Below are positions 4,498 through 51,114 of a stretch of 64,000 bases of DNA, piece by piece. How positions within the stretch are numbered: position 1 is the first letter of the stretch; each line of letters starts with the position of its first letter. The notes below the pieces were generated by a model, which did not search any database, was not told the DNA's origin, and saw only the letters and a list, made by a program, of their open reading frames with translations. The stretch is from Parcubacteria group bacterium (GTDB taxonomy: Bacteria; Patescibacteriota; Minisyncoccia; UBA6257; JACRHW01), in the NCBI GenBank assembly GCA_016217555.1, contig JACRHW010000017.1, positions 5,093 through 69,092 on the forward strand. The letters are read 5' to 3'. The position numbers and the translations under genes were made by a program.

Positions 4498-5100
4498 ATG
4501 GACATTACGCATTTCCTTCAGACGTTTGGATATATAGGTGTCACCAGTCTCCTTATTACAGAGACTGGTTTGCTTGTTGGGTTCTTTTTGCCAGGAGACA
4601 CCTTGTTGTTTGCGATGGGGATTCTTATTTCACAACATATTTTTAATTTTCCTACTGCATTTCTCTCGATTATTGCTGGGGCACTTATTGGAGATACACT
4701 GGGATATATTATTGGTCGCGTGGCGGGGCCAATGGTATTCGCTCGCAAGGATTCTTTGTTTTTTGATCGTACGCACATTGAGGCGACACGTGAGTTTTAT
4801 AAAAAGCATGGATCACTCGCTGCGCTTATTGGCCATTTTTTTCCTATCGTACGTACTGCAGTGCCTACTTTTGCAGGGATAGGGCGTATGCATTTCCCCC
4901 GTTTCTTTCTCTGTGATTGTGTAGGAATAATAGTATGGGCATTTTCTTTTGTCTCACTTGGCTATTATTTTGGTGCAGCCATTCCTCATCTTGATAAATA
5001 TCTCGAAAAGGTGCTTCTTGGTATCTTTTTCATCTCCCTTTTGCCGGGTATTGTGCATTTTGTAATCCACAAATCAAAACTGAAGAAGACGCAACTTTGA
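4498..5100 (+). CDS. DedA/SNARE-associated family membrane protein
   Basis: Motif GLLVGFFLPGDTLLFAMG with a polytopic profile. The ATG at 4498 avoids overlap with the upstream gene; the track's start at 4435 is less likely. Confidence 0.6.
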   Translation: MDITHFLQTFGYIGVTSLLITETGLLVGFFLPGDTLLFAMGILISQHIFNFPTAFLSIIAGALIGDTLGYIIGRVAGPMVFARKDSLFFDRTHIEATREFYKKHGSLAALIGHFFPIVRTAVPTFAGIGRMHFPRFFLCDCVGIIVWAFSFVSLGYYFGAAIPHLDKYLEKVLLGIFFISLLPGIVHFVIHKSKLKKTQL

Positions 5101-5266: not shown

Positions 5267-7744
5267 TTGTCTGAGAGTGATCTGAAATCAGAAGAGCGTG
5301 ATAATGAAGTACGAAAAGAAGGAGTTGTTTTTCAAGAAAAATTACGCGAACGAAATGAGTATGATGAAAAGCCTGATAGGGTTTTTGTTGTTTCTCGTGG
5401 CACGTTTGGGGAGTTTGAGGGGGCTATTACCAATCCAGAAGTATCATTGAAGGTTGGCGATCCAATCTTGTTAAAGAATCAAGAGGGAACAACGGTTGAT
5501 AGGCTAGTGACAGCGGAAGATGTTGAAAAACAACGCCTGATTAATAGCAATCGAGATTATCTTGGGGCTAAGGGTGGAGATCCTTTGCTTTGGGGCAGTG
5601 TTCAGGCTGAAGCCTGTAGTAAAAGAGCAGATGACATAAGCTCTAAATTATTAGAACTCCCTTCTTACAAAGGGGCTAATGCCAAGGAGCAAGTTGAATT
5701 AAGACAGATTTTTGGAGAGACTTCATCGCATATAGATAAGATGAAAGAGGACATGAAAGCTGAAAATGTTGAGAAGATGATTTCCGAGAAAATATTTTTT
5801 GGAAATGGGTCCGAAGAGGACGTTAAGAAATATAATTCTCTTCCGGAGGATCAAAAGAAGGCATTTAGAGAAGACAAGGTTAAGGATGTATTTTCTGGAA
5901 TAGCTGCGAAAGAAGTTGGAAAAATGAAACTTTCTGAAGAAGAGGCAATCCAAAAAATGGTAATAGAAGATATGGCAAAGCAGGGGAAGAATCCTACCAA
6001 AGAGGAGGTGTTGGATATTTTGAATGCTGGTGGTGGGGCTGGGAGGGTAGAGGCATTCGCTGAATTTAAGAGGAGGCAGCTGGAAGCAACAGAAAAAGAA
6101 AATATGTTTTGTGCGAATCAAGGAGATATTAAGGCGCTTGATCAGGCCCTCAAGGATTTAAATAATCCCGAGCTCAGTAAGGATAAAATTAAAGATGTTT
6201 TGCGCAAAATTAGTGGAAATTCTTTAAATGCTGCTGTTGATATTTCTTTCGCAAGGCAGGCAAAAAGAGATGGTTTTGATCGTGTATCAACTAAAGCTGC
6301 TGACCCGGAAATAATAGTACCACCAGTTGGTACGGATGGTACTTCTTCGTCGTGGATGCCGGGTGGGTATCCTGGAGAAAGGCATACTGTATCACCACTA
6401 CCACCCGAAGGGACACCGCCTCCATCATGGACTCCTGGTGGATATCCAGGAACTCGATATGATGTAAAGCCATTACCACCAGGAGGCCCAGGCCCTGGTC
6501 CGGATGGTCCTATTGGCCCAACGGGACCCGAAACCCCCCCCATTGGACCTCGTGGGCCAGAGAGAGTGGTATTTGTGCAGGATCTAAAAAATGAATACGA
6601 CCGATTGCGCGATGTATATATTATGGATCGTCGCGCAACGCGTGGAGCTGGTTTGGAGCGTGGAATTCTTGAGAGGGATAGAGCTGATATGGAACGCGCC
6701 AAGGAGGCGTATCTTGGTGCGCAGATGAGAGCTGCCATGGAGTCGGTGAGAAGCGCTACGGCAGGGATGGAGGGTGAGGAGGCCGCAAGGGCACAGACTG
6801 AGGCGCTTACAGCAATTGGACTTGATTTGAATACGCGACTTGATGCGCAATTCCTTCAAAGTGAACGCGAGCGTGAACCAAACGGATGGTATGCAAAATT
6901 TAATCGTTTTTGGATGAGTAAGGCGGGGAGTGCCGTGAAGGTGGTTGGTGGTGTTGGTTTAACCACAATCGGAGGATTCACGGGGTTGTTGCCGCTTGTT
7001 GGTCTTGGGACCACCATGGCTGCCTCTGGAATTGGGTGGGAGGCTGGTAAGGTTTGGAGCTTGGGAAGAAAAAACTGGGGAATGAATAAAATTAGGACGC
7101 CAGAAGAAATTGAACGCATGGCGCCAGAACAGGTAGATGTGGTGCTCAATTCTCAACGTGAACTTATGCGTAGGCAGGGTCGTGTGGATCCTGAACGCGT
7201 TGCTACGATACAAGCACTTGAGGCGCGACGTGATCAAATTCTACAAGAACGCATGAGGGAGCGTGTGCAACGCATGATTCTCGAGGAGGGCGGATTGTCG
7301 TCAGAGAATATCACACGAGCAACGACAGACGCGTTAAATCTTGAAAATGGTTCATTTCTAAGAACTGGTGAGGCGACAGATGAACGTGCTAGAGCTTGGG
7401 AGATACGAAGAAGGAAGATCGCTGGTATCGCGGGTGGTATAGGTGTCGGGCTTGCAAATTTGGCGGCTCAATGGGGTGCAGCCAGCGTCAATTTTGTAAA
7501 CGATGCGGCGACGCGTACTGCGATGAGAGCCGATTATAACAAGGATGGTGTTTGGAATTGGGTGAGAAATAATGGAAAAGAATATTGGGATACTGCGAGA
7601 CAAACATGGCATTCCACTGGTGGGACTGGTGGATTCTCTGGCGCAAAAGAAGTCATTCTCAATGTTCCAAATGAGGGCTTTGCATCATACTCATACCCTA
7701 GTCATCAATACCCGGCAGGATTCACCGAGGGTGTAACATTCTAA
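5267..7744 (+). CDS. Large hypothetical protein (825 aa) with a K/E-rich N-terminal half, a collagen-like Gly/Pro tract and one hydrophobic segment
   Basis: Long ORF with coding-like composition. Contains PGGYPGxRxxVxPLPP x2 and GPGPGPDGPIGPTGPETPPIGPRGPE. No recognisable catalytic motif. Confidence 0.5.
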   Translation: MSESDLKSEERDNEVRKEGVVFQEKLRERNEYDEKPDRVFVVSRGTFGEFEGAITNPEVSLKVGDPILLKNQEGTTVDRLVTAEDVEKQRLINSNRDYLGAKGGDPLLWGSVQAEACSKRADDISSKLLELPSYKGANAKEQVELRQIFGETSSHIDKMKEDMKAENVEKMISEKIFFGNGSEEDVKKYNSLPEDQKKAFREDKVKDVFSGIAAKEVGKMKLSEEEAIQKMVIEDMAKQGKNPTKEEVLDILNAGGGAGRVEAFAEFKRRQLEATEKENMFCANQGDIKALDQALKDLNNPELSKDKIKDVLRKISGNSLNAAVDISFARQAKRDGFDRVSTKAADPEIIVPPVGTDGTSSSWMPGGYPGERHTVSPLPPEGTPPPSWTPGGYPGTRYDVKPLPPGGPGPGPDGPIGPTGPETPPIGPRGPERVVFVQDLKNEYDRLRDVYIMDRRATRGAGLERGILERDRADMERAKEAYLGAQMRAAMESVRSATAGMEGEEAARAQTEALTAIGLDLNTRLDAQFLQSEREREPNGWYAKFNRFWMSKAGSAVKVVGGVGLTTIGGFTGLLPLVGLGTTMAASGIGWEAGKVWSLGRKNWGMNKIRTPEEIERMAPEQVDVVLNSQRELMRRQGRVDPERVATIQALEARRDQILQERMRERVQRMILEEGGLSSENITRATTDALNLENGSFLRTGEATDERARAWEIRRRKIAGIAGGIGVGLANLAAQWGAASVNFVNDAATRTAMRADYNKDGVWNWVRNNGKEYWDTARQTWHSTGGTGGFSGAKEVILNVPNEGFASYSYPSHQYPAGFTEGVTF

Positions 7745-7791: not shown

Positions 7792-8286
7792 ATGGCACAA
7801 CTAGTATTAAAAGAACTTATTGCGCGTTATCCGGAATTAAACCAAGATTTTTTCAAGGAGCTTGAGCTTGAAAATGTTCCTGAGGAGCAGAAAACTACAC
7901 TCATGGAGGCGTATTACGAAAATGTCGGAAGTCGTTTTATGGACACGGTTCTCACAGCACACTTAACTGATGAGCAAAAGAGTACATTGAGTGAAATTTT
8001 AGATCAGGAAAATGTAGACCAGGCTCCTGTCATTGATTTCTTGAATGAAAATGTTCCTGATTGGACAGAAATTCTGCAGGTACAAATGGCGCAGGCGAAG
8101 CTTGATTTGATGAATACCACAAAGCGTATTCAGGAGATGGCAAAACAGATTGTTGAGCAGCAGGCTCCAGCACAGCCCGCAGAGGCACCAATGCCAGTAG
8201 AGCCACAGCCTGTTGCTGTAGCGCCAGAGGAACCAAAACCAGCGGCCCCAGAACAGTCAGCACAGGAGCCAACACCGCTGCAGTAA
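7792..8286 (+). CDS. Hypothetical acidic protein with a Pro/Ala-rich C-terminal tail
   Basis: 164-aa ORF immediately downstream of the 825-aa protein. No known motif. Confidence 0.4.
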   Translation: MAQLVLKELIARYPELNQDFFKELELENVPEEQKTTLMEAYYENVGSRFMDTVLTAHLTDEQKSTLSEILDQENVDQAPVIDFLNENVPDWTEILQVQMAQAKLDLMNTTKRIQEMAKQIVEQQAPAQPAEAPMPVEPQPVAVAPEEPKPAAPEQSAQEPTPLQ

Positions 8287-8441
8287 CATTATTTGATTTG
8301 AATAGACAACAAAGCCCTTTTTCTAGGGTTTTGTGTTTTTGAGCTTAAACTATGGGAGTTGAATTTCCATAGTTTTTGAATTTTGGTAATAGTTGTGATA
8401 GCATATAACAATATGACGGTAGAAGATGTACAAAAAAAATA

Positions 8442-8699
8442 GTGCCTATTCTTGAGGAACATCGTGTAACTTACGCGGCTGTTTTTGGTAGTGTTGCACG
8501 TAATGAAGATACTCCCGAGAGCGATGTTGATTTGCTTGTTTGTTTACCTAGTCTAATGGGCATGTTTTCTTATATGCGTCTTATTCATGATCTTGAAACT
8601 TGTCTTAATAGAAAGGTAGATGTGGTAACGGAACAAAGTCTTAATAAATTTGTGAAGCCATACATAAAAGCCGATCTCAAAGTAATTTATGAAGGATGA
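8442..8699 (+). CDS. Minimal nucleotidyltransferase (MntA-like antitoxin of HepT/MntA-type TA pairs)
   Basis: VFGSVARNEDTPESDVDLLV is a GS...DxD nucleotidyltransferase motif. An upstream ATG at 8413 is separated from this frame by an A8 tract. Confidence 0.6.
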   Translation: MPILEEHRVTYAAVFGSVARNEDTPESDVDLLVCLPSLMGMFSYMRLIHDLETCLNRKVDVVTEQSLNKFVKPYIKADLKVIYEG

Positions 8700-8702
8700 T
8701 AG

Positions 8703-8880
8703 GGTATATATTGAACAGATATTAGAGGCAGTTGGTAAGATAAGGCAGTTTACCGAAGGAATAAACATGGAAGGATATTGCTGGTTTTCGTGATCGAGCA
8801 ATCCATGATTATTATCAAATCTTCCCGTCCTCGCAGATCATTTGAGTAGGCAATATTATTTTTAGTACAGGGTGTTTGGG
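8703..8880 (+). pseudogene. Decayed HepT/DUF86-like toxin remnant downstream of mntA
   Basis: Two frames encode ILEAVGKIRQFTEGI... and FRDRAIHDYYQI (the DUF86 RxxxxHxY motif), separated by a stop and a frameshift. The middle of the domain is missing. Confidence 0.4.
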
Positions 8881-8885
8881 TCAAC

Positions 8886-10061
8886 CTATTTTATATTTTT
8901 TGCGATTTCTACATCTCTTATTTTGTACATTCTTTTCATTGCAATCGATTTCATTGCGCGATTTGTGGTGTAGCCTATGATGGCGAGTGCGAGGAAATAC
9001 ATCATTCCAAATAGAGTAAATGTAGGGGGTTTTTGCGCAAATAGGCTGAGAATGCTTGCCCCTACCCCCATAGAGGTTACTACGGTGAGGCTTTGTATGG
9101 AGTTGTTCGTGCTCTGTGCTTGGAGGGTTTCAAAGAGTTTTATGGCCGAGGCAACATAATTTTTAGTCATTGTCCACAAATCCTTAATATATTCTAATGT
9201 GTCGCTCAATGCCTCATAGCGGAATTGTAAGACGTTGGCAAAATGACGAAGTGATTCTTTGTTTTTAAAGATTGTTTCGCGTGTATGAATGTAGGTACCC
9301 ATTTGGTTAATGCGCGCTTCGATAAAATTGATTGTCTTATTGTAACTCTCTATTTCATTTTTGAAGGTGCCTATATCTTTTCCGCGTATTTCACCGCGTT
9401 CTTTGACCTCTGCAATTTTTTCCCAGATAAGACGATGAAGATTTAAATAACGATGTACTTGTCCTTTGAATTCGCGTATAAATATCTGCTCATTAATAAA
9501 TTGTCCTATATTTGAAAATGGTTCTGAGAGGCTGTTAATAATATAAAGAATATCTCCTCTATAGATTTCAAACGAATCTGCTTTGATTTCAAAATACTTT
9601 TTCTGATGAAAATCCTTAAGAAGTTGTTCTATATCTTCTTTTGTCGCATTGTCGAGTACCACAAAATAAGGATAAATCGTTTTTATGTTCGCCAACTCTT
9701 TTGGTACAGGTGCTCCAAGGCTAAAAATGTAGCTTAACGCGGGGGAGAGCTTTTCTTCGTAGTAGGAGGTAAGTGCCTTAATATCTTTCTCAAGTTTTGA
9801 TTCGGGGTTCTTGTTAAGGACAATCAGGCCATCTTCATAAATAGTGATTTCAATCCCTTGTTTTTCGATGAGTTTTACATATTCAAAATCTTCTATGTTC
9901 ATCTCAAGAGAGTGGATTCCGAGCGCTTTTTGAAGGGTTTTTAGTTTTTCTTTGTCCAAATCCAAAGGCGATTCCGCATCGCGAAGAAAATCATATATTT
10001 CCGAGAGGTGTAGGGTCGTTCTCTGAAACCAACCCCTAATATATATTTTTTGTATAGTCAC
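8886..10061 (-). CDS. Hypothetical protein with two C-terminal TM helices
   Basis: 391-aa ORF with a soluble N-terminal domain and a C-terminal TM pair (SLTVVTSMGVGASILSLF ... LFGMMYFLALAIIGY). No GMN motif. Confidence 0.4.
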   Translation of the reverse strand: MTIQKIYIRGWFQRTTLHLSEIYDFLRDAESPLDLDKEKLKTLQKALGIHSLEMNIEDFEYVKLIEKQGIEITIYEDGLIVLNKNPESKLEKDIKALTSYYEEKLSPALSYIFSLGAPVPKELANIKTIYPYFVVLDNATKEDIEQLLKDFHQKKYFEIKADSFEIYRGDILYIINSLSEPFSNIGQFINEQIFIREFKGQVHRYLNLHRLIWEKIAEVKERGEIRGKDIGTFKNEIESYNKTINFIEARINQMGTYIHTRETIFKNKESLRHFANVLQFRYEALSDTLEYIKDLWTMTKNYVASAIKLFETLQAQSTNNSIQSLTVVTSMGVGASILSLFAQKPPTFTLFGMMYFLALAIIGYTTNRAMKSIAMKRMYKIRDVEIAKNIK

Positions 10062-10232
10062 ACGTGTAGAGCTTTTATTATATTTACATTATACCATACT
10101 GAAAGAATGTTAATTCACAACAAATCAAAAATCTGACGATCGTCATGAATTTGATTACATAAAGATAACCAAACATGAGTGGTATGATGTATCATACCAC
10201 TCATGTTTGGAGACAGGTAGGTTTTTAAAAAT

Positions 10233-10261
10233 TTGACATCATTGTTGGGGGGGGGTATTAT
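10233..10261 (+). promoter_or_regulatory. Sigma-70-type promoter TTGACA-N17-TATTAT with a G9 homopolymer in the spacer
   Basis: TTGACA lies at 10233-10238 and TATTAT at 10256-10261. G9 lies at 10247-10255. The ATG of the downstream gene is at 10284. Confidence 0.45.
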
Positions 10262-10283
10262 AAGAAAAAAGATTTAATATTTT

Positions 10284-11264
10284 ATGAAAGAAACACCTTC
10301 TCAAGAGAAACCAATAAATGTTGTTATAGATAAAAATGGTAATGCTGTTGGTACGACCGAAGATCTAAAGAGATATACAGAGCAACGAAGAAGGGAACAA
10401 GAGGCTTCAGGATTTGCGGCGCCAGAGAACAGTAGAGAAGATAGATTGAAGGAAAAAGAAATTGCGTTCGGGGCTGGGGCAGAAAAATTTAAACAATCTG
10501 CGAGTGCGCTTTGGCGTCGCTTAAAAGGTGGTGTAAAAAGCACGTTTGATATGATTAAAAAAGTTCCTGGCAAAATATATGCACACGTAGCAGTGGGGGC
10601 AGAAGATATTGGCACGCGATGGAAAGAAGAGATGAAAACAACGCAAGATGCATGGAAACAGGATAAGGAAAATCTTGGAAAGGGGCGGAGACAAATTGGG
10701 TCATTTATAAAAAAAGATTGGGAACATACAAAGGGTGATTGGGAAAACGTGAAAACGGGTGTTGTTGAGCGAGCTAACGATGCAGGTAGATTTATGGTTG
10801 AGATAAAAGATGGTTTTGTTGATGGATATAAAAACGTGCGAGACGGTGCAATAAAAGGATGTGGACGGATTTTGGAGGGTATCCGCTCTATGGTCAGCTC
10901 AAAAGCGCTCGAAGGATTAAGCGCAACCATCGATTTTTTAAACACCAAAAGGCAGGCAATAGAAAACGCACAGGGCATATTAAAAACACAAGCTGAGAAG
11001 CAGGATTTGCCAGGTAATTTTGAGAAAATTGTGGCAATGCAGACCGTGGGGGCAGTATATGACCCAAAACAAGAGGCGTTTTTGGAAGCACTTGCAGGAG
11101 GTGATAAAAAAACGTGGGAAGATTTTCGTAATAATAAAGCCTCTCAGAGCGCCAAAGATCGTGGCGATGATAATGATGGTTTGTTTTTGGGATGGGAACA
11201 AAAAGATTTTCAGGAACTTCTTAGAAGAAAAATGCGACATATAATAGATAGTCAACGTAAGTAG
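10284..11264 (+). CDS. Hypothetical K/E/D-rich soluble protein
   Basis: 326-aa ORF with no TM helices and no known motifs. Confidence 0.45.
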   Translation: MKETPSQEKPINVVIDKNGNAVGTTEDLKRYTEQRRREQEASGFAAPENSREDRLKEKEIAFGAGAEKFKQSASALWRRLKGGVKSTFDMIKKVPGKIYAHVAVGAEDIGTRWKEEMKTTQDAWKQDKENLGKGRRQIGSFIKKDWEHTKGDWENVKTGVVERANDAGRFMVEIKDGFVDGYKNVRDGAIKGCGRILEGIRSMVSSKALEGLSATIDFLNTKRQAIENAQGILKTQAEKQDLPGNFEKIVAMQTVGAVYDPKQEAFLEALAGGDKKTWEDFRNNKASQSAKDRGDDNDGLFLGWEQKDFQELLRRKMRHIIDSQRK

Positions 11265-11274
11265 ATTTTAATTT

Positions 11275-11703
11275 ATGATTTCAAAAGAAGAATTAGTACA
11301 ACTCGTTATTGAATTAAAAGCAAAGAGGGTTCTTAATGAAGAAGAGGCTGATCAATACCTTGTTTTGGCACAAGGGGACGATATTATTGGAGTGGCGATG
11401 AATCTCTCTTTATTGCTCGATGAAAAATCAGTACAGGTAGATACGGAAATTCTTGATGTTACCTCAGAATTAGTAGACACTGCGAAAAAGATTGCAGAAG
11501 AATCAAAAGACGATGCAGTGATTAGTGAAGTCAATCGCCTTGAGGATGAATTTTCCGGTGTTTTAGAACAGCTTCAAAAAGATACAAAAGAGATGAGGGA
11601 TGATTATGCAAGTCTTGCTCCTGTTTTTGCAGAGGCTGAGGAGATAATAAGGGAGGGTGCTATCGAGGAGCAACGACAGAAAATTCAAGGTTCCGGTGCA
11701 TAA
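11275..11703 (+). CDS. Hypothetical small acidic helical protein
   Basis: 142-aa ORF immediately downstream of the 326-aa protein. Confidence 0.4.
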   Translation: MISKEELVQLVIELKAKRVLNEEEADQYLVLAQGDDIIGVAMNLSLLLDEKSVQVDTEILDVTSELVDTAKKIAEESKDDAVISEVNRLEDEFSGVLEQLQKDTKEMRDDYASLAPVFAEAEEIIREGAIEEQRQKIQGSGA

Positions 11704-11731
11704 TAACTATATTGTCGTAACTATTCTGTTG

Positions 11732-11759
11732 CAAACCTCAACAATGAGGTTTGTTTTTT
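11732..11759 (+). terminator. Rho-independent terminator
   Basis: Hairpin CAAACCTCA-ACAA-TGAGGTTTG followed by a T-run. Confidence 0.5.
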
Positions 11760-11836
11760 GATTTCCGAATTATGGGAATTCAACTTCCATAGTTTTTGAG
11801 TTTTTGGAGGAGTGTGGTAGATTTAAAAAATAAAAT

Positions 11837-13048
11837 ATGCGAGATACACAAATAGAGAATCTAATTAAAAAGGAGACACAGCGACAAAACGAAACGTTGG
11901 ATTTAATTCCCTCTGAGAATTTTGTTTCATCAGAGGTGCTTAAGGCGCTTGGCTCAGTACTTACTAATAAATATGCTGAAGGGTATTCTGGGAAGCGGTA
12001 CTATGGTGGAAATGAGTATGTCGATCAGATAGAAACATTATGTATTGATCGCGCACTCAAGGTGTTCAAGCTCTCACCTAAAAAATGGCATGTGAACGTG
12101 CAACCCTACTCTGGTTCTCCTGCAAACTTGGCAGTGTATGCTGGTCTTGTTCCACTTGGAGAAAAGATAATGGGGATGCAACTTGATATGGGAGGGCATC
12201 TTACCCATGGGCATAAGGTAAGTTTTACGGGGAGTGCGTGGAAACAGATTCCTTATGGCGTAGATCAGAAGACTGAGGTGTTGGATTATCATGCGCTCAT
12301 GGTGCTTGCCGAAGCGGAGAAGCCAAAGCTTATTGTTGTTGGATATACGGCGTATCCCCGAAAAATAGATTTTGCAAAATTTAGAGCGATTGCAGATAAA
12401 ATTGGTGCTTATCTCATGGTGGATATGTCGCACTTCTCAGGGCTTGTTGCTGGTGGCGCACTACCGAGTCCATTTAAGTATGCAGATGTAGTAACCACTA
12501 CAACACACAAGACATTGCGTGGGCCACGAGGGGCGATGATTTTTTGTAAAGCTGATCTTGCGAGGTCTATTGATCGTGCAGTGTTCCCTGGCCTTCAGGG
12601 GGGGCCTCATGTAAATCAGATTGCGGCTACTGCAGTTGCATTACTCGAAGCTGGTCAGCCAACTTTTAAATCTTATGCAAAGCAGGTGATTCTTAACGCG
12701 AAGGCACTTTCAAATGAGCTAAAGAAAATGGGTTGGAGAATTGTTTCGGGGGGGACGGATACGCATTTATTATTAGTAGATACTTTTGCACGAGGGATCC
12801 CTGGCAAGGAGGCGAGCGACTTACTACAAGAAAATGGTATAATAGTAAATAAGAACACCATTCCCTTTGATGCACGTTCTCCTATGGATCCTTCGGGGAT
12901 TCGCTTGGGAACTCCAGCGCTTACGACGCGAGGTATGAAGGAAAAAGAGATGGTGCTTATTGCACAGATGATTCACGAGGTGCTTTTAGAGAAAAAGAAC
13001 GTGTTGGCTCAAATCAAAATTCTCTGCAGAAGATTTCCAATAAAATAA
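11837..13048 (+). CDS. glyA: Serine hydroxymethyltransferase
   Basis: Full-length SHMT signature including the PLP-lysine region TTTTHKTLRGPRG and GGHLTHGH. Confidence 0.9.
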   Translation: MRDTQIENLIKKETQRQNETLDLIPSENFVSSEVLKALGSVLTNKYAEGYSGKRYYGGNEYVDQIETLCIDRALKVFKLSPKKWHVNVQPYSGSPANLAVYAGLVPLGEKIMGMQLDMGGHLTHGHKVSFTGSAWKQIPYGVDQKTEVLDYHALMVLAEAEKPKLIVVGYTAYPRKIDFAKFRAIADKIGAYLMVDMSHFSGLVAGGALPSPFKYADVVTTTTHKTLRGPRGAMIFCKADLARSIDRAVFPGLQGGPHVNQIAATAVALLEAGQPTFKSYAKQVILNAKALSNELKKMGWRIVSGGTDTHLLLVDTFARGIPGKEASDLLQENGIIVNKNTIPFDARSPMDPSGIRLGTPALTTRGMKEKEMVLIAQMIHEVLLEKKNVLAQIKILCRRFPIK

Positions 13049-39822: not shown

Positions 39823-39936
39823 TACCCCACCCGAGACCAAAGCTCATCTCCAAAGGGGAGACCGTTACAACCCCCCTATTATAGCGATAACACCTGACTC
39901 CCCCTTGAGGATGATCATTTGGTCTCGGGTGGGGTA
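39823..39936. mobile_element. MITE-like element with perfect 19-bp terminal inverted repeats TACCCCACCCGAGACCAAA (family G)
   Basis: TACCCCACCCGAGACCAAA (39823-39841) and TTTGGTCTCGGGTGGGGTA (39918-39936) flank a 76-nt interior that has its own hairpin. Confidence 0.5.
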
Positions 39937-39964: not shown

Positions 39965-40747
39965 ATGAAATTTCTTAGACGATATTACAATGAGCTTTTT
40001 TCTTTGTGCGTTTTTTCCCCCCTGGTGATACTTGGGATGCGGTCTGGTGTGGTTGGGGGGATAGGTATTGCGGGTTTTCTTACGTTTTTTGCGGCAATAA
40101 TATTCCGGAATAACTATATTACCGCTTTTTCCGTGTTGTTGCTCATACCCTTTTTGGTATTTGGAGATGTGAGTTCTTTTTTTGGAATCGGACCGACAGC
40201 CTTCGGCTCCCTTATTTCTTTAGTATTTTACCTCTTTTGTTCCTCTTTTTTACACAAAAAAAATTGGATATGGATGTGGTATATTCCGGTATGGCTTTTT
40301 GGTTTTGAGCTCTTAGGTAGTATTTCGTTTGATATATTGAAAGATAGTACTATTTTTGTTGCATTTTTCAGTCTCACACACCTTTTTCTTGCTTTATCTG
40401 TTCCGCGAATCCGTCAGCCGGCGGAGGGAATCCAGAAAACATCGATGTTACCACTGGATCCCCACCTTCGTGGGGATGACACCATTACTGTGGATAAGCC
40501 CGTCCTACTTCGTTTTTTTGCTTTTCTTTTTTCCACACTTTTGTTTGAGCTTTTTTGGGTCATACGGGTACTTCCTTTAGGAGTTTTTTTGGGTTCTCTG
40601 TTTATTGTGGTTTTCTTTTATTTCATTACCCACCTCTATCGTGGTTATATTTTAGAAAAGCCCATTCAGTATTATATTCGTCCTAGCGCGTTTACTTTTC
40701 TTTTATTGCTTGCTATCCTGATAACTGCAATTAAAACTCCTTTTTAA
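39965..40747 (+). CDS. Hypothetical polytopic membrane protein with an in-frame palindromic-repeat insertion
   Basis: About 8 TM helices. A hydrophilic loop ...RIRQPAEGIQKTSMLPLDPHLRGDDTIT... is encoded by GGGAATCCAG ... CTGGATCCCCACCTTCGTGGGGATGACA, a repeat module also present intergenically at 63640-63705. Confidence 0.45.
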   Translation: MKFLRRYYNELFSLCVFSPLVILGMRSGVVGGIGIAGFLTFFAAIIFRNNYITAFSVLLLIPFLVFGDVSSFFGIGPTAFGSLISLVFYLFCSSFLHKKNWIWMWYIPVWLFGFELLGSISFDILKDSTIFVAFFSLTHLFLALSVPRIRQPAEGIQKTSMLPLDPHLRGDDTITVDKPVLLRFFAFLFSTLLFELFWVIRVLPLGVFLGSLFIVVFFYFITHLYRGYILEKPIQYYIRPSAFTFLLLLAILITAIKTPF

Positions 40748-50529: not shown

Positions 50530-51114
50530 ATGGAAAACTACGATCTTATTAAAAAACTTCGTGAGGCAACAGGCGTCTCTCTTATGGAGTGCAAAAATGC
50601 ACTTGAGGAAATGGGGGGTGATTTTGATAAAGCATTCGAGTTGATGAGAAAGAAGGGGATTGCCAAAGCAGAGAAGAAGGCAGAGCGAGCCACAGGGGTA
50701 GGAAGAATAGAGGCGTATGTTCACGCAGGTAATCGTGTGGGAGTGCTTCTTGATATTCGTTGTGAGACAGATTTTGTCGCTCGAAATGAAGTATTTATAG
50801 AGTTGGCGCACGAGGTTGCCATGCAGATAGCAGCACTTTCTCCAAGGTACGTGAATAGTGATGAGGTTCCTGCGGAGGTTATTGCAAGTGAGCGCGCTAT
50901 ATTTGAGGCAAGTATGGCAGACCAAAAGAAACCAAAAGAAATGCTCGATAAAATTATCGATGGTAAACTTGCAAAACGTTTTGAGGAGATGTGTCTTTTA
51001 GATCAGCCTTTTATTAAGGATCAGACGATGAAGGTGCGCGATATTATTAAAAATTATATTTCAAAGTTGGGTGAAAATATCGTGGTGGCACGCTTCACCC
51101 GTTTTGAGGCATAA
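50530..51114 (+). CDS. tsf: Elongation factor Ts (short form)
   Basis: LIKKLREATGVSLMECKNALEE (UBA-like N-terminus) plus a dimerisation core; lies downstream of rpsB. Confidence 0.85.
   Translation: MENYDLIKKLREATGVSLMECKNALEEMGGDFDKAFELMRKKGIAKAEKKAERATGVGRIEAYVHAGNRVGVLLDIRCETDFVARNEVFIELAHEVAMQIAALSPRYVNSDEVPAEVIASERAIFEASMADQKKPKEMLDKIIDGKLAKRFEEMCLLDQPFIKDQTMKVRDIIKNYISKLGENIVVARFTRFEA

Follow-up and report, generated by a model that had tools for sequence, protein, structure and literature searches.

Nine of the 17 bases that separate the -35 and -10 hexamers of a sigma-70-type promoter in an uncultured groundwater Parcubacterium form one G run, and in our judgement the chances are about even that this G9 tract acts as a heritable, reversible expression dial of a two-gene ORFan cassette. 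We infer promoter activity of the site, slippage of the tract often enough to be useful, and a dependence of expression on tract length. The switch is backed by its exact anatomy, the rarity of the tract, its location in strain-specific accessory DNA and class-level recurrence; counting against it are the G9 length found in both assemblies and the soluble products, which are unlike those of classical phase-variable surface genes. Coordinates refer to the window, i.e., the whole 64-kb stretch of DNA that was analysed.

A near-consensus promoter with a G9 spacer

The promoter region comprises the following elements:

10220-10232, + strand: A/T-rich stretch GGTTTTTAAAAAT directly 5' of the -35 hexamer, UP element-like (function predicted from sequence)
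10233-10238, + strand: -35 hexamer TTGACA, 6/6 (sequence, consensus scan)
10239-10255, + strand: 17-nt spacer TCATTGTTGGGGGGGGG (sequence, consensus scan)
10247-10255, + strand: G9 homopolymer adjoining the -10 hexamer, the proposed slippage site (sequence, run counts)
10256-10261, + strand: -10 hexamer TATTAT, 5/6, preceded by GGG and so without a TG extended -10 motif
10268-10270, + strand: predicted transcription start, an A run 7-9 nt after the -10 hexamer

Both hexamers, the 17-nt spacer with its G9 tract and their coordinates were exactly as described in the first-pass annotation of this DNA. In a consensus scan, the TTGACA-17 nt-TATTAT site scored 11/12, the top score within positions 8000-13000. 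Four sites scoring at least 11/12 were found in the whole window vs. 2.1 in shuffles and, since three of them (at 5097, 10233 and 23691) are placed immediately 5' of + strand genes, the canonical sigma-70 consensus seems to apply in this Parcubacterium. Promoter-like matches as a whole were not enriched over shuffles in the scan of the window. Matches of at least 11/12 occurred approximately twice per 128 kb of shuffled sequence (both strands), so that about 0.004 are expected in the 222-bp gap. The ATG of the 326-aa ORF is at 10284, and the -10 hexamer ends 22 nt upstream; near-consensus hexamers spaced within the 16-18 nt range of sigma-70-type promoters are thus found just 5' of a same-strand ORF.

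Unlike the G9 promoter, those of neighbouring genes are of the TGnTAnnnT type with poor -35 elements. Because of its perfect -35 hexamer and the lack of a TG extended -10 motif, the G9 promoter should depend on -35/-10 spacing. In our view, the TTGACA/TATTAT site is very probably a real, strong promoter.

The predicted leader of the 326-aa gene is approximately 15 nt long and has no Shine-Dalgarno sequence. As around two thirds of the window ORFs are also without a Shine-Dalgarno-like sequence, and several have short leaders, its lack is normal here, and the pattern suggests that mRNAs with short leaders, or with none, are widespread in this genome. A TGnTAnnnT extended -10 element was observed just 13-37 nt from the start codon in several genes, e.g., glyA, the divergent 391-aa gene described below and the gene at 50530.

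The G9 tract is the longest G/C run in the window and its sole intergenic G/C run of at least 6 nt, the 19 other G runs of at least 6 nt all being located within genes, where they encode glycine. Between 0.007 (independent bases) and 0.016 (first-order Markov) G/C runs of at least 9 nt are expected in the 10.5 kb of intergenic DNA, which agrees with the initial description of the tract as highly unusual. The GC content given at that stage, 45%, had to be corrected to 41.6% for the window and 38% for intergenic DNA. With regard to what is expected of a contingency locus, the run exceeds the minimum of about 7-8 nt for slippage and is positioned between -35 and -10, so that its length sets their spacing.

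Two ORFan genes downstream of the promoter

Two genes and a terminator-like structure follow the promoter:

10284-11264, + strand: gene for a K-, E- and G-rich basic protein of 326 aa (NCBI HZA35_02855), ORFan
11275-11703, + strand: gene for a 142-aa acidic protein (HZA35_02860), ORFan
11731-11754, + strand: hairpin resembling an intrinsic terminator, with TTTTTT directly 3' of it; the two-gene transcript probably ends here

The 326-aa product is hydrophilic (K 11.7%, E 8.9%, pI 9.25) and identical to the NCBI entry 'MAG: hypothetical protein HZA35_02855 [Parcubacteria group bacterium]', and the 142-aa product has a pI of 4.18. Composition and pI are therefore in line with the earlier reading of a K/E-rich protein followed by a small acidic one. 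Codon usage in both ORFs was similar to that of other window genes and frame preference was clear, indicating that both are real genes. The 142-aa gene begins 10 nt past the end of the 326-aa gene and is probably co-transcribed with it; both genes, with the terminator-like hairpin, look like one transcription unit of 1.5 kb.

A word-indexed search of 5.8 billion proteins for homologues of the 326-aa and 142-aa proteins returned only the queries themselves. In an exhaustive HMMER search of 1.84 billion representatives, the 326-aa protein had one marginal match (E 3.5e-4), in which it aligned with W-periodic repeats in a tape-measure-like protein of 981 aa. PHROGs gave weak matches to helical repeats (phrog_17020, 1.5e-5; tape measure, 2e-4). 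Pfam, NCBIfam, PADLOC and IMG/VR gave nothing useful for the cassette proteins. The single-sequence AF2 model of the 326-aa protein was all-helical and of low confidence (pLDDT 45).

No signal peptide or transmembrane segment was predicted in either product. Both thus appear to be soluble ORFans, and the likeness to fimbrial and surface-protein genes that had been suggested for this locus was not supported. A surface, host-interaction or restriction-modification product, typical of contingency loci although not obligatory, was recognised in neither ORFan, as neither matched a family.

A strain-specific cassette between a CorA-like gene and glyA

The promoter and both ORFans are part of a cassette inserted between a conserved CorA-like gene and glyA. 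The cassette, its ends and the genes on the CorA-like side are as follows:

8442-8699: nucleotidyltransferase gene (Pfam NTP_transf_2/Polbeta; PADLOC PDC-S09)
8689 to ~8860: decayed DUF86-type HEPN gene, reading MKDDRVYIEQILEAVGKI..., then a frameshift or deletion, then ...KDIAGFRDRAIHDYYQI
8886-10061, - strand: conserved 391-aa Patescibacteria membrane protein with CorA-like fold, a divergent neighbour that is context rather than part of the switch
~10087-10095, - strand: own TGGTATAAT promoter of the 391-aa gene
10169-10210, no strand: perfect 20+20-nt palindrome with a 2-nt centre, the 3' end of which coincides with the left cassette junction (fold, L009 alignment)
10212-11792, + strand: strain-specific cassette of ~1.58 kb with promoter, two ORFan genes, terminator and terminal hairpin (alignment with relatives)
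11768-11795, no strand: hairpin at the right cassette end, with a second copy at 8347-8375

The window was compared with L009 (JACRHX010000042.1; 91%), a relative from the same groundwater study, and with L002/L003 (89%) and L004-L008 (87%). The L009 alignment was collinear up to 10211, a part that includes the beginning of the 391-aa gene, the TGGTATAAT promoter of this gene and two palindromes, and resumed at ~11793, at the glyA promoter module TTTTTGAGTTTTTG..TGTGGTAGATT. In L002/L003 and L004-L008, glyA is directly divergent from the CorA-like gene, with 72 bp between them. The cassette is accordingly found in one strain and is absent at the same site in all three closest relatives compared. 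It encodes only the two ORFans, with no Pfam match, and neither a recombinase or transposase nor recognised attachment sites were found in it.

The hairpins at both cassette ends (10169-10210 and 11768-11795) belong to no known family. The left palindrome, located 23 nt 5' of the -35 hexamer, has a DNA fold of -22.4 kcal/mol (z = -6.3), and an imperfect version of it is present in L009. It could possibly serve as an operator or a recombination site, or lie between the divergent promoters as an insulator or a terminator. A second, imperfect palindrome was observed at 10123-10156. When the intergenic region was searched for known RNA families, only meaningless hairpin matches to miRNA models were obtained. 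A 9-nt complementarity between the spacer and the terminator was judged to be due to chance.

A 46-nt direct repeat with 80% identity was also observed (8348-8393 and 11768-11813), in which the hairpin AAyTATGGGAnTTnAAyTTCCATAG stands 5' of the glyA promoter module TTTTTGAnTTTT..TGTGnTAG. The two copies are located 5' of the nucleotidyltransferase gene and 5' of glyA, respectively, and the hairpin part is missing in the relatives L009 and L002. In L009, approximately 180 bp of extra DNA (~5615-5800), including an inverted repeat of its own (GTTGTCAATCC...GGATTGACAAC), separate the glyA promoter module from the glyA start. The intergenic site between the CorA-like gene and glyA measured 72 bp, 386 bp and 1,775 bp in the three lineages compared; given the 72-bp form, the extra DNA of L009 and the cassette of the window, it differs in all three.

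The 391-aa protein belongs to a large family: more than 2,800 members with ~60% identity occur throughout Patescibacteria, and identity is ~53% in gut Bacilli MAGs. The window's member had no Pfam match. Its alignment-based model (pLDDT 78) matched CorA-type Mg2+ channels in fold (Foldseek probability ~1, E 5e-5), with TSMGVG at the place of the GMN motif of CorA. The NCBI annotation of this protein is shorter (357 aa), whereas a start at the GTG at 10061 is supported by homologues. Beyond this gene, on the side away from the cassette, the toxin-antitoxin-like pair represents a second insertion, at a site that measures 51 bp in relatives.

Two further repeats were observed elsewhere in the window. 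The second-longest G/C homopolymer, a C8 run at 6534-6541, is located within the proline- and glycine-rich middle of an 825-aa ORF (5267-7744), where a one-base slip would truncate the protein; this run was dropped as a candidate frameshift switch, the neighbouring gene in L002 not being orthologous. A long, near-perfect inverted repeat (TACCCCACCCGAGACCAAAGCTCATC ... GATGATCATTTGGTCTCGGGTGGGGTA, 39823-39936) encloses C6-TATTAT within a 210-bp gap 5' of the gene at 39965, and Rfam gave only generic hairpin matches to miRNA models for it.

Poly-G spacers in related loci

We collected 1.48 Mb of DNA that surrounds homologues of the 391-aa gene in metagenomes and in genomes representative of their species, and recorded G/C runs of at least 8 nt as lying in a promoter spacer when they were found between -35-like and -10-like hexamers 14-21 nt apart. 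The 1.48 Mb contained 18 such runs, eight of which (nine with L087) were inside -35/-10 spacers, compared with 0.34% of random positions (binomial 7e-16, uncorrected for orthology). Orthologous sites are not independent, yet at least three to five separate origins remain. The putative promoters were the following:

L010, 4146-4176, - strand: TTGACA-10 nt-G9-TAGAAT, 19-nt spacer, OFF-like
L054, 4159-4187 and 5453-5482: TTGACC-G9-8 nt-TATTAT, 17-nt spacer; in the second copy 7 nt, 16-nt spacer
L058, 97-126: TTGACC-G10-7 nt-TATTAT, 17-nt spacer
L066, 5509-5536: G8, 16-nt spacer
L067, 5099-5128: TTGACA-9 nt-G9-TATTAT, 18-nt spacer, layout as in the window
L074, 5382-5411: TTGACC-G10-7 nt-TATTAT, 17-nt spacer
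L087, ~5329-5358: TTGACCC-G9

L010 has 29% GC and a 65% homologue of the 391-aa protein, and is Patescibacteria-like though labelled Gammaproteobacteria by the depositor. Its promoter is approximately 90 nt 5' of a 324-aa K/E-rich ORF; no homology was found between this ORF and the 326-aa protein of the window.

The other six loci come from gut 'uncultured Bacilli/Mycoplasma' MAGs of 22-32% GC. Here, TTGAC(A/C/T)-N16-18-TATTAT promoters with G8-G10 would drive a GNAT / CorA-like / ABC-transporter operon, the CorA-like member of which is a homologue of the window's 391-aa gene. In sister species with the same promoter, the G run is interrupted, AGGGGATGGAG (L051, L052), or missing (L060), indicating that the tract is evolutionarily labile and not needed for promoter function. 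A G tract that comes and goes in evolution, as these alignments suggest, is the behaviour of simple-sequence contingency loci, and the gut operon looks like a phase-variable operon of an uncultured gut lineage.

Tract length in the window and in Giovannonibacteria

A G9 tract with identical flanks was present in the window and in a Logan contig of SRR12113407 (L001), two assemblies of one sample, which report the majority state only; no length variant was seen between them. Look-ups of the cassette proteins retrieved this Logan contig and no other. A pattern with the exact flanks and a free gap of 4-16 nt matched nothing in JGI metagenome contigs, and a search for strain variants by way of the 391-aa, glyA and DUF5663 products gave no record. 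The start of the Logan contig, at window position 10092, was considered as a sign of excision and rejected: a 37-nt stretch common to the co-occurring L009 ends exactly k-1 (30 nt) beyond this position, which therefore represents an assembly-graph branch.

A comparable tract was found to vary at a different locus and in a different genus, in Giovannonibacteria, beside reverse-transcriptase and bAvd-like genes next to a 391-aa homologue. The contigs L013 and L100 were 99.77% identical over 8,782 bp, and their sole two indels, 19 nt apart, were G10 vs. G9 (4394-4403 in L013, corresponding to 2395-2403 in L100) and A2 vs. A3. Ten assemblies from different samples, two of them the same public records as L013 and L100, carried an identical 391-aa homologue, and nine spanned the tract (~894 in L169-L177). 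Seven of these nine had G10/A2, one had G9/A3, where the extra A offsets the missing G, and one had G9/A2, with other flanking bases alike. This pattern is as a slippage hotspot would give, and sequencing or assembly error at homopolymers may contribute to it.

Discussion

Runs such as G9 are known to be prone to slippage, and contingency loci usually sit in strain-specific accessory DNA. During replication, the spacer would gain or lose single bases by slipped-strand mispairing. The state found in the assembly, with its optimal 17-nt spacer, would be ON; G8 or G10 (16 or 18 nt) would lower transcription, and a two-base change would bring it near to silencing. Promoters with a 17-nt spacer are usually weakened, not silenced, by a change of one base, and since such a change would give 16 or 18 nt here, the dial would probably be graded rather than strictly on/off. 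Expression of the cassette would thereby be tuned stochastically within the population, in a heritable and reversible manner, like that of porA in Neisseria meningitidis.

This proposal has to be weighed against a fixed, constitutive strong promoter in which the G run is incidental, either a leftover of cassette creation or insertion or a product of drift, and changes length too rarely to matter. We regard such a promoter as tenable, if doubtful. It would account for the optimal 17-nt spacing in both assemblies and for products that do not resemble surface antigens, and the gut Bacilli orthologues, in which the overall spacer stays within 16-18 nt even though the number of Gs differs (e.g., G9 plus 8 nt, G10 plus 7 nt), fit selection on the ON length. 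It leaves unexplained, however, why a run of at least 9 nt occurs where merely 0.007-0.016 are expected in intergenic DNA and why long G runs are strongly concentrated in the promoter spacers of related genomes; as a sister promoter does without the tract (L060), only mutability obviously explains this recurrence. The polymorphism of a comparable tract among near-identical Giovannonibacteria assemblies also speaks against a fixed length.

We consider it improbable that the G run is instead a sequence-specific or structural element, such as a regulator site or a rigid G/C block setting the rate of promoter opening. The tract does adjoin a hexamer, the -10 in the window and L067 and the -35 in L054, L058 and L074, and the conserved palindrome 23 nt 5' of the -35 suggests regulated divergent promoters. 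Nevertheless, the tract occupies different places in the spacers of different promoters, which speaks against a fixed contact, the sequence is unrelated in L060 and interrupted in L051 and L052, and neither cassette gene codes for a candidate binding protein. A hexamer match due to chance, or a homopolymer made by sequencing or assembly, would be in keeping with the lack of overall enrichment of promoter-like matches over shuffles and with the error-proneness of Illumina at long G runs. We think this highly improbable, as the 11/12 site combines ideal spacing, the right strand and the right distance to a 326-aa ORF of window-like codon usage where only ~0.004 matches are expected in the 222-bp gap. 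Besides, the independent Logan assembly of the same sample reproduced G9 and its flanks, and sequencer poly-G artefacts are found at read and contig ends rather than in the contig interior.

The phase-variable switch proposed in the first-pass annotation therefore stands in part: spacer anatomy, the poly-G spacers of related genomes and the G9/G10 variation at another Patescibacteria locus speak for it, while the supposed likeness to surface genes is not supported.

CPR/Patescibacteria are ultra-small, many of them are episymbiotic, and they have very few recognisable regulators. Our literature searches turned up no account of phase variation based on repeats in CPR/Patescibacteria. We put forward, as a tentative idea that is possible rather than probable, that these bacteria use simple-sequence contingency promoters and that poly-G spacers have evolved repeatedly and independently as a device of very small genomes, with the CorA-like operon of the gut Mollicutes-like Bacilli as one instance. 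If the switch works, CPR would share a bet-hedging device with host-adapted pathogens, and the ORFan pair would be singled out as a function worth switching, e.g., in host attachment, immunity or phage conflict. The concentration of long G runs in promoter spacers of reduced genomes is a wider pattern seen beyond this locus.

Comparison with known systems

In Mycoplasma hyorhinis vlp, a poly-A tract lies in the promoter spacer, and in Bordetella pertussis fim2/fim3, a poly-C tract is found upstream of the -10. In both cases, the genome is small or host-adapted, and a homopolymer in or beside the promoter core makes expression ON/OFF or graded. These tracts control surface lipoproteins or fimbriae, and the one in Bordetella spaces an activator site, not the -35.

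The gut-MAG promoters resemble that of the window in having TTGAC(A/C/T), G8-10 in a 16-18-nt spacer and TATTAT, with the same layout in L067. They belong to another phylum and to other genes; theirs would drive the 391-aa homologue, whereas the window's points away from the 391-aa gene.

In hifA/hifB of Haemophilus influenzae, the number of TA repeats sets the -35/-10 spacing and hence transcription (PMC3899988). The window's promoter is similarly placed in a divergent intergenic region with a repeat in the spacer. It differs in that the repeat is a mononucleotide run, rather than a dinucleotide controlling both divergent genes, and in that the divergent CorA-like gene has its own promoter ~150 nt away.

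In porA of Neisseria meningitidis, a poly-G tract occupies the -35/-10 spacer, and the gain or loss of one G alters transcript level (PMC3899988). The site described here likewise has poly-G inside the -35/-10 spacer of a sigma-70 promoter. In contrast to porA, it belongs to an uncultured Parcubacterium, precedes a gene for a soluble ORFan rather than for an outer-membrane porin, and has a tract that adjoins the -10. By its anatomy, the window site is a porA-type promoter-spacer homopolymer and a candidate switch.
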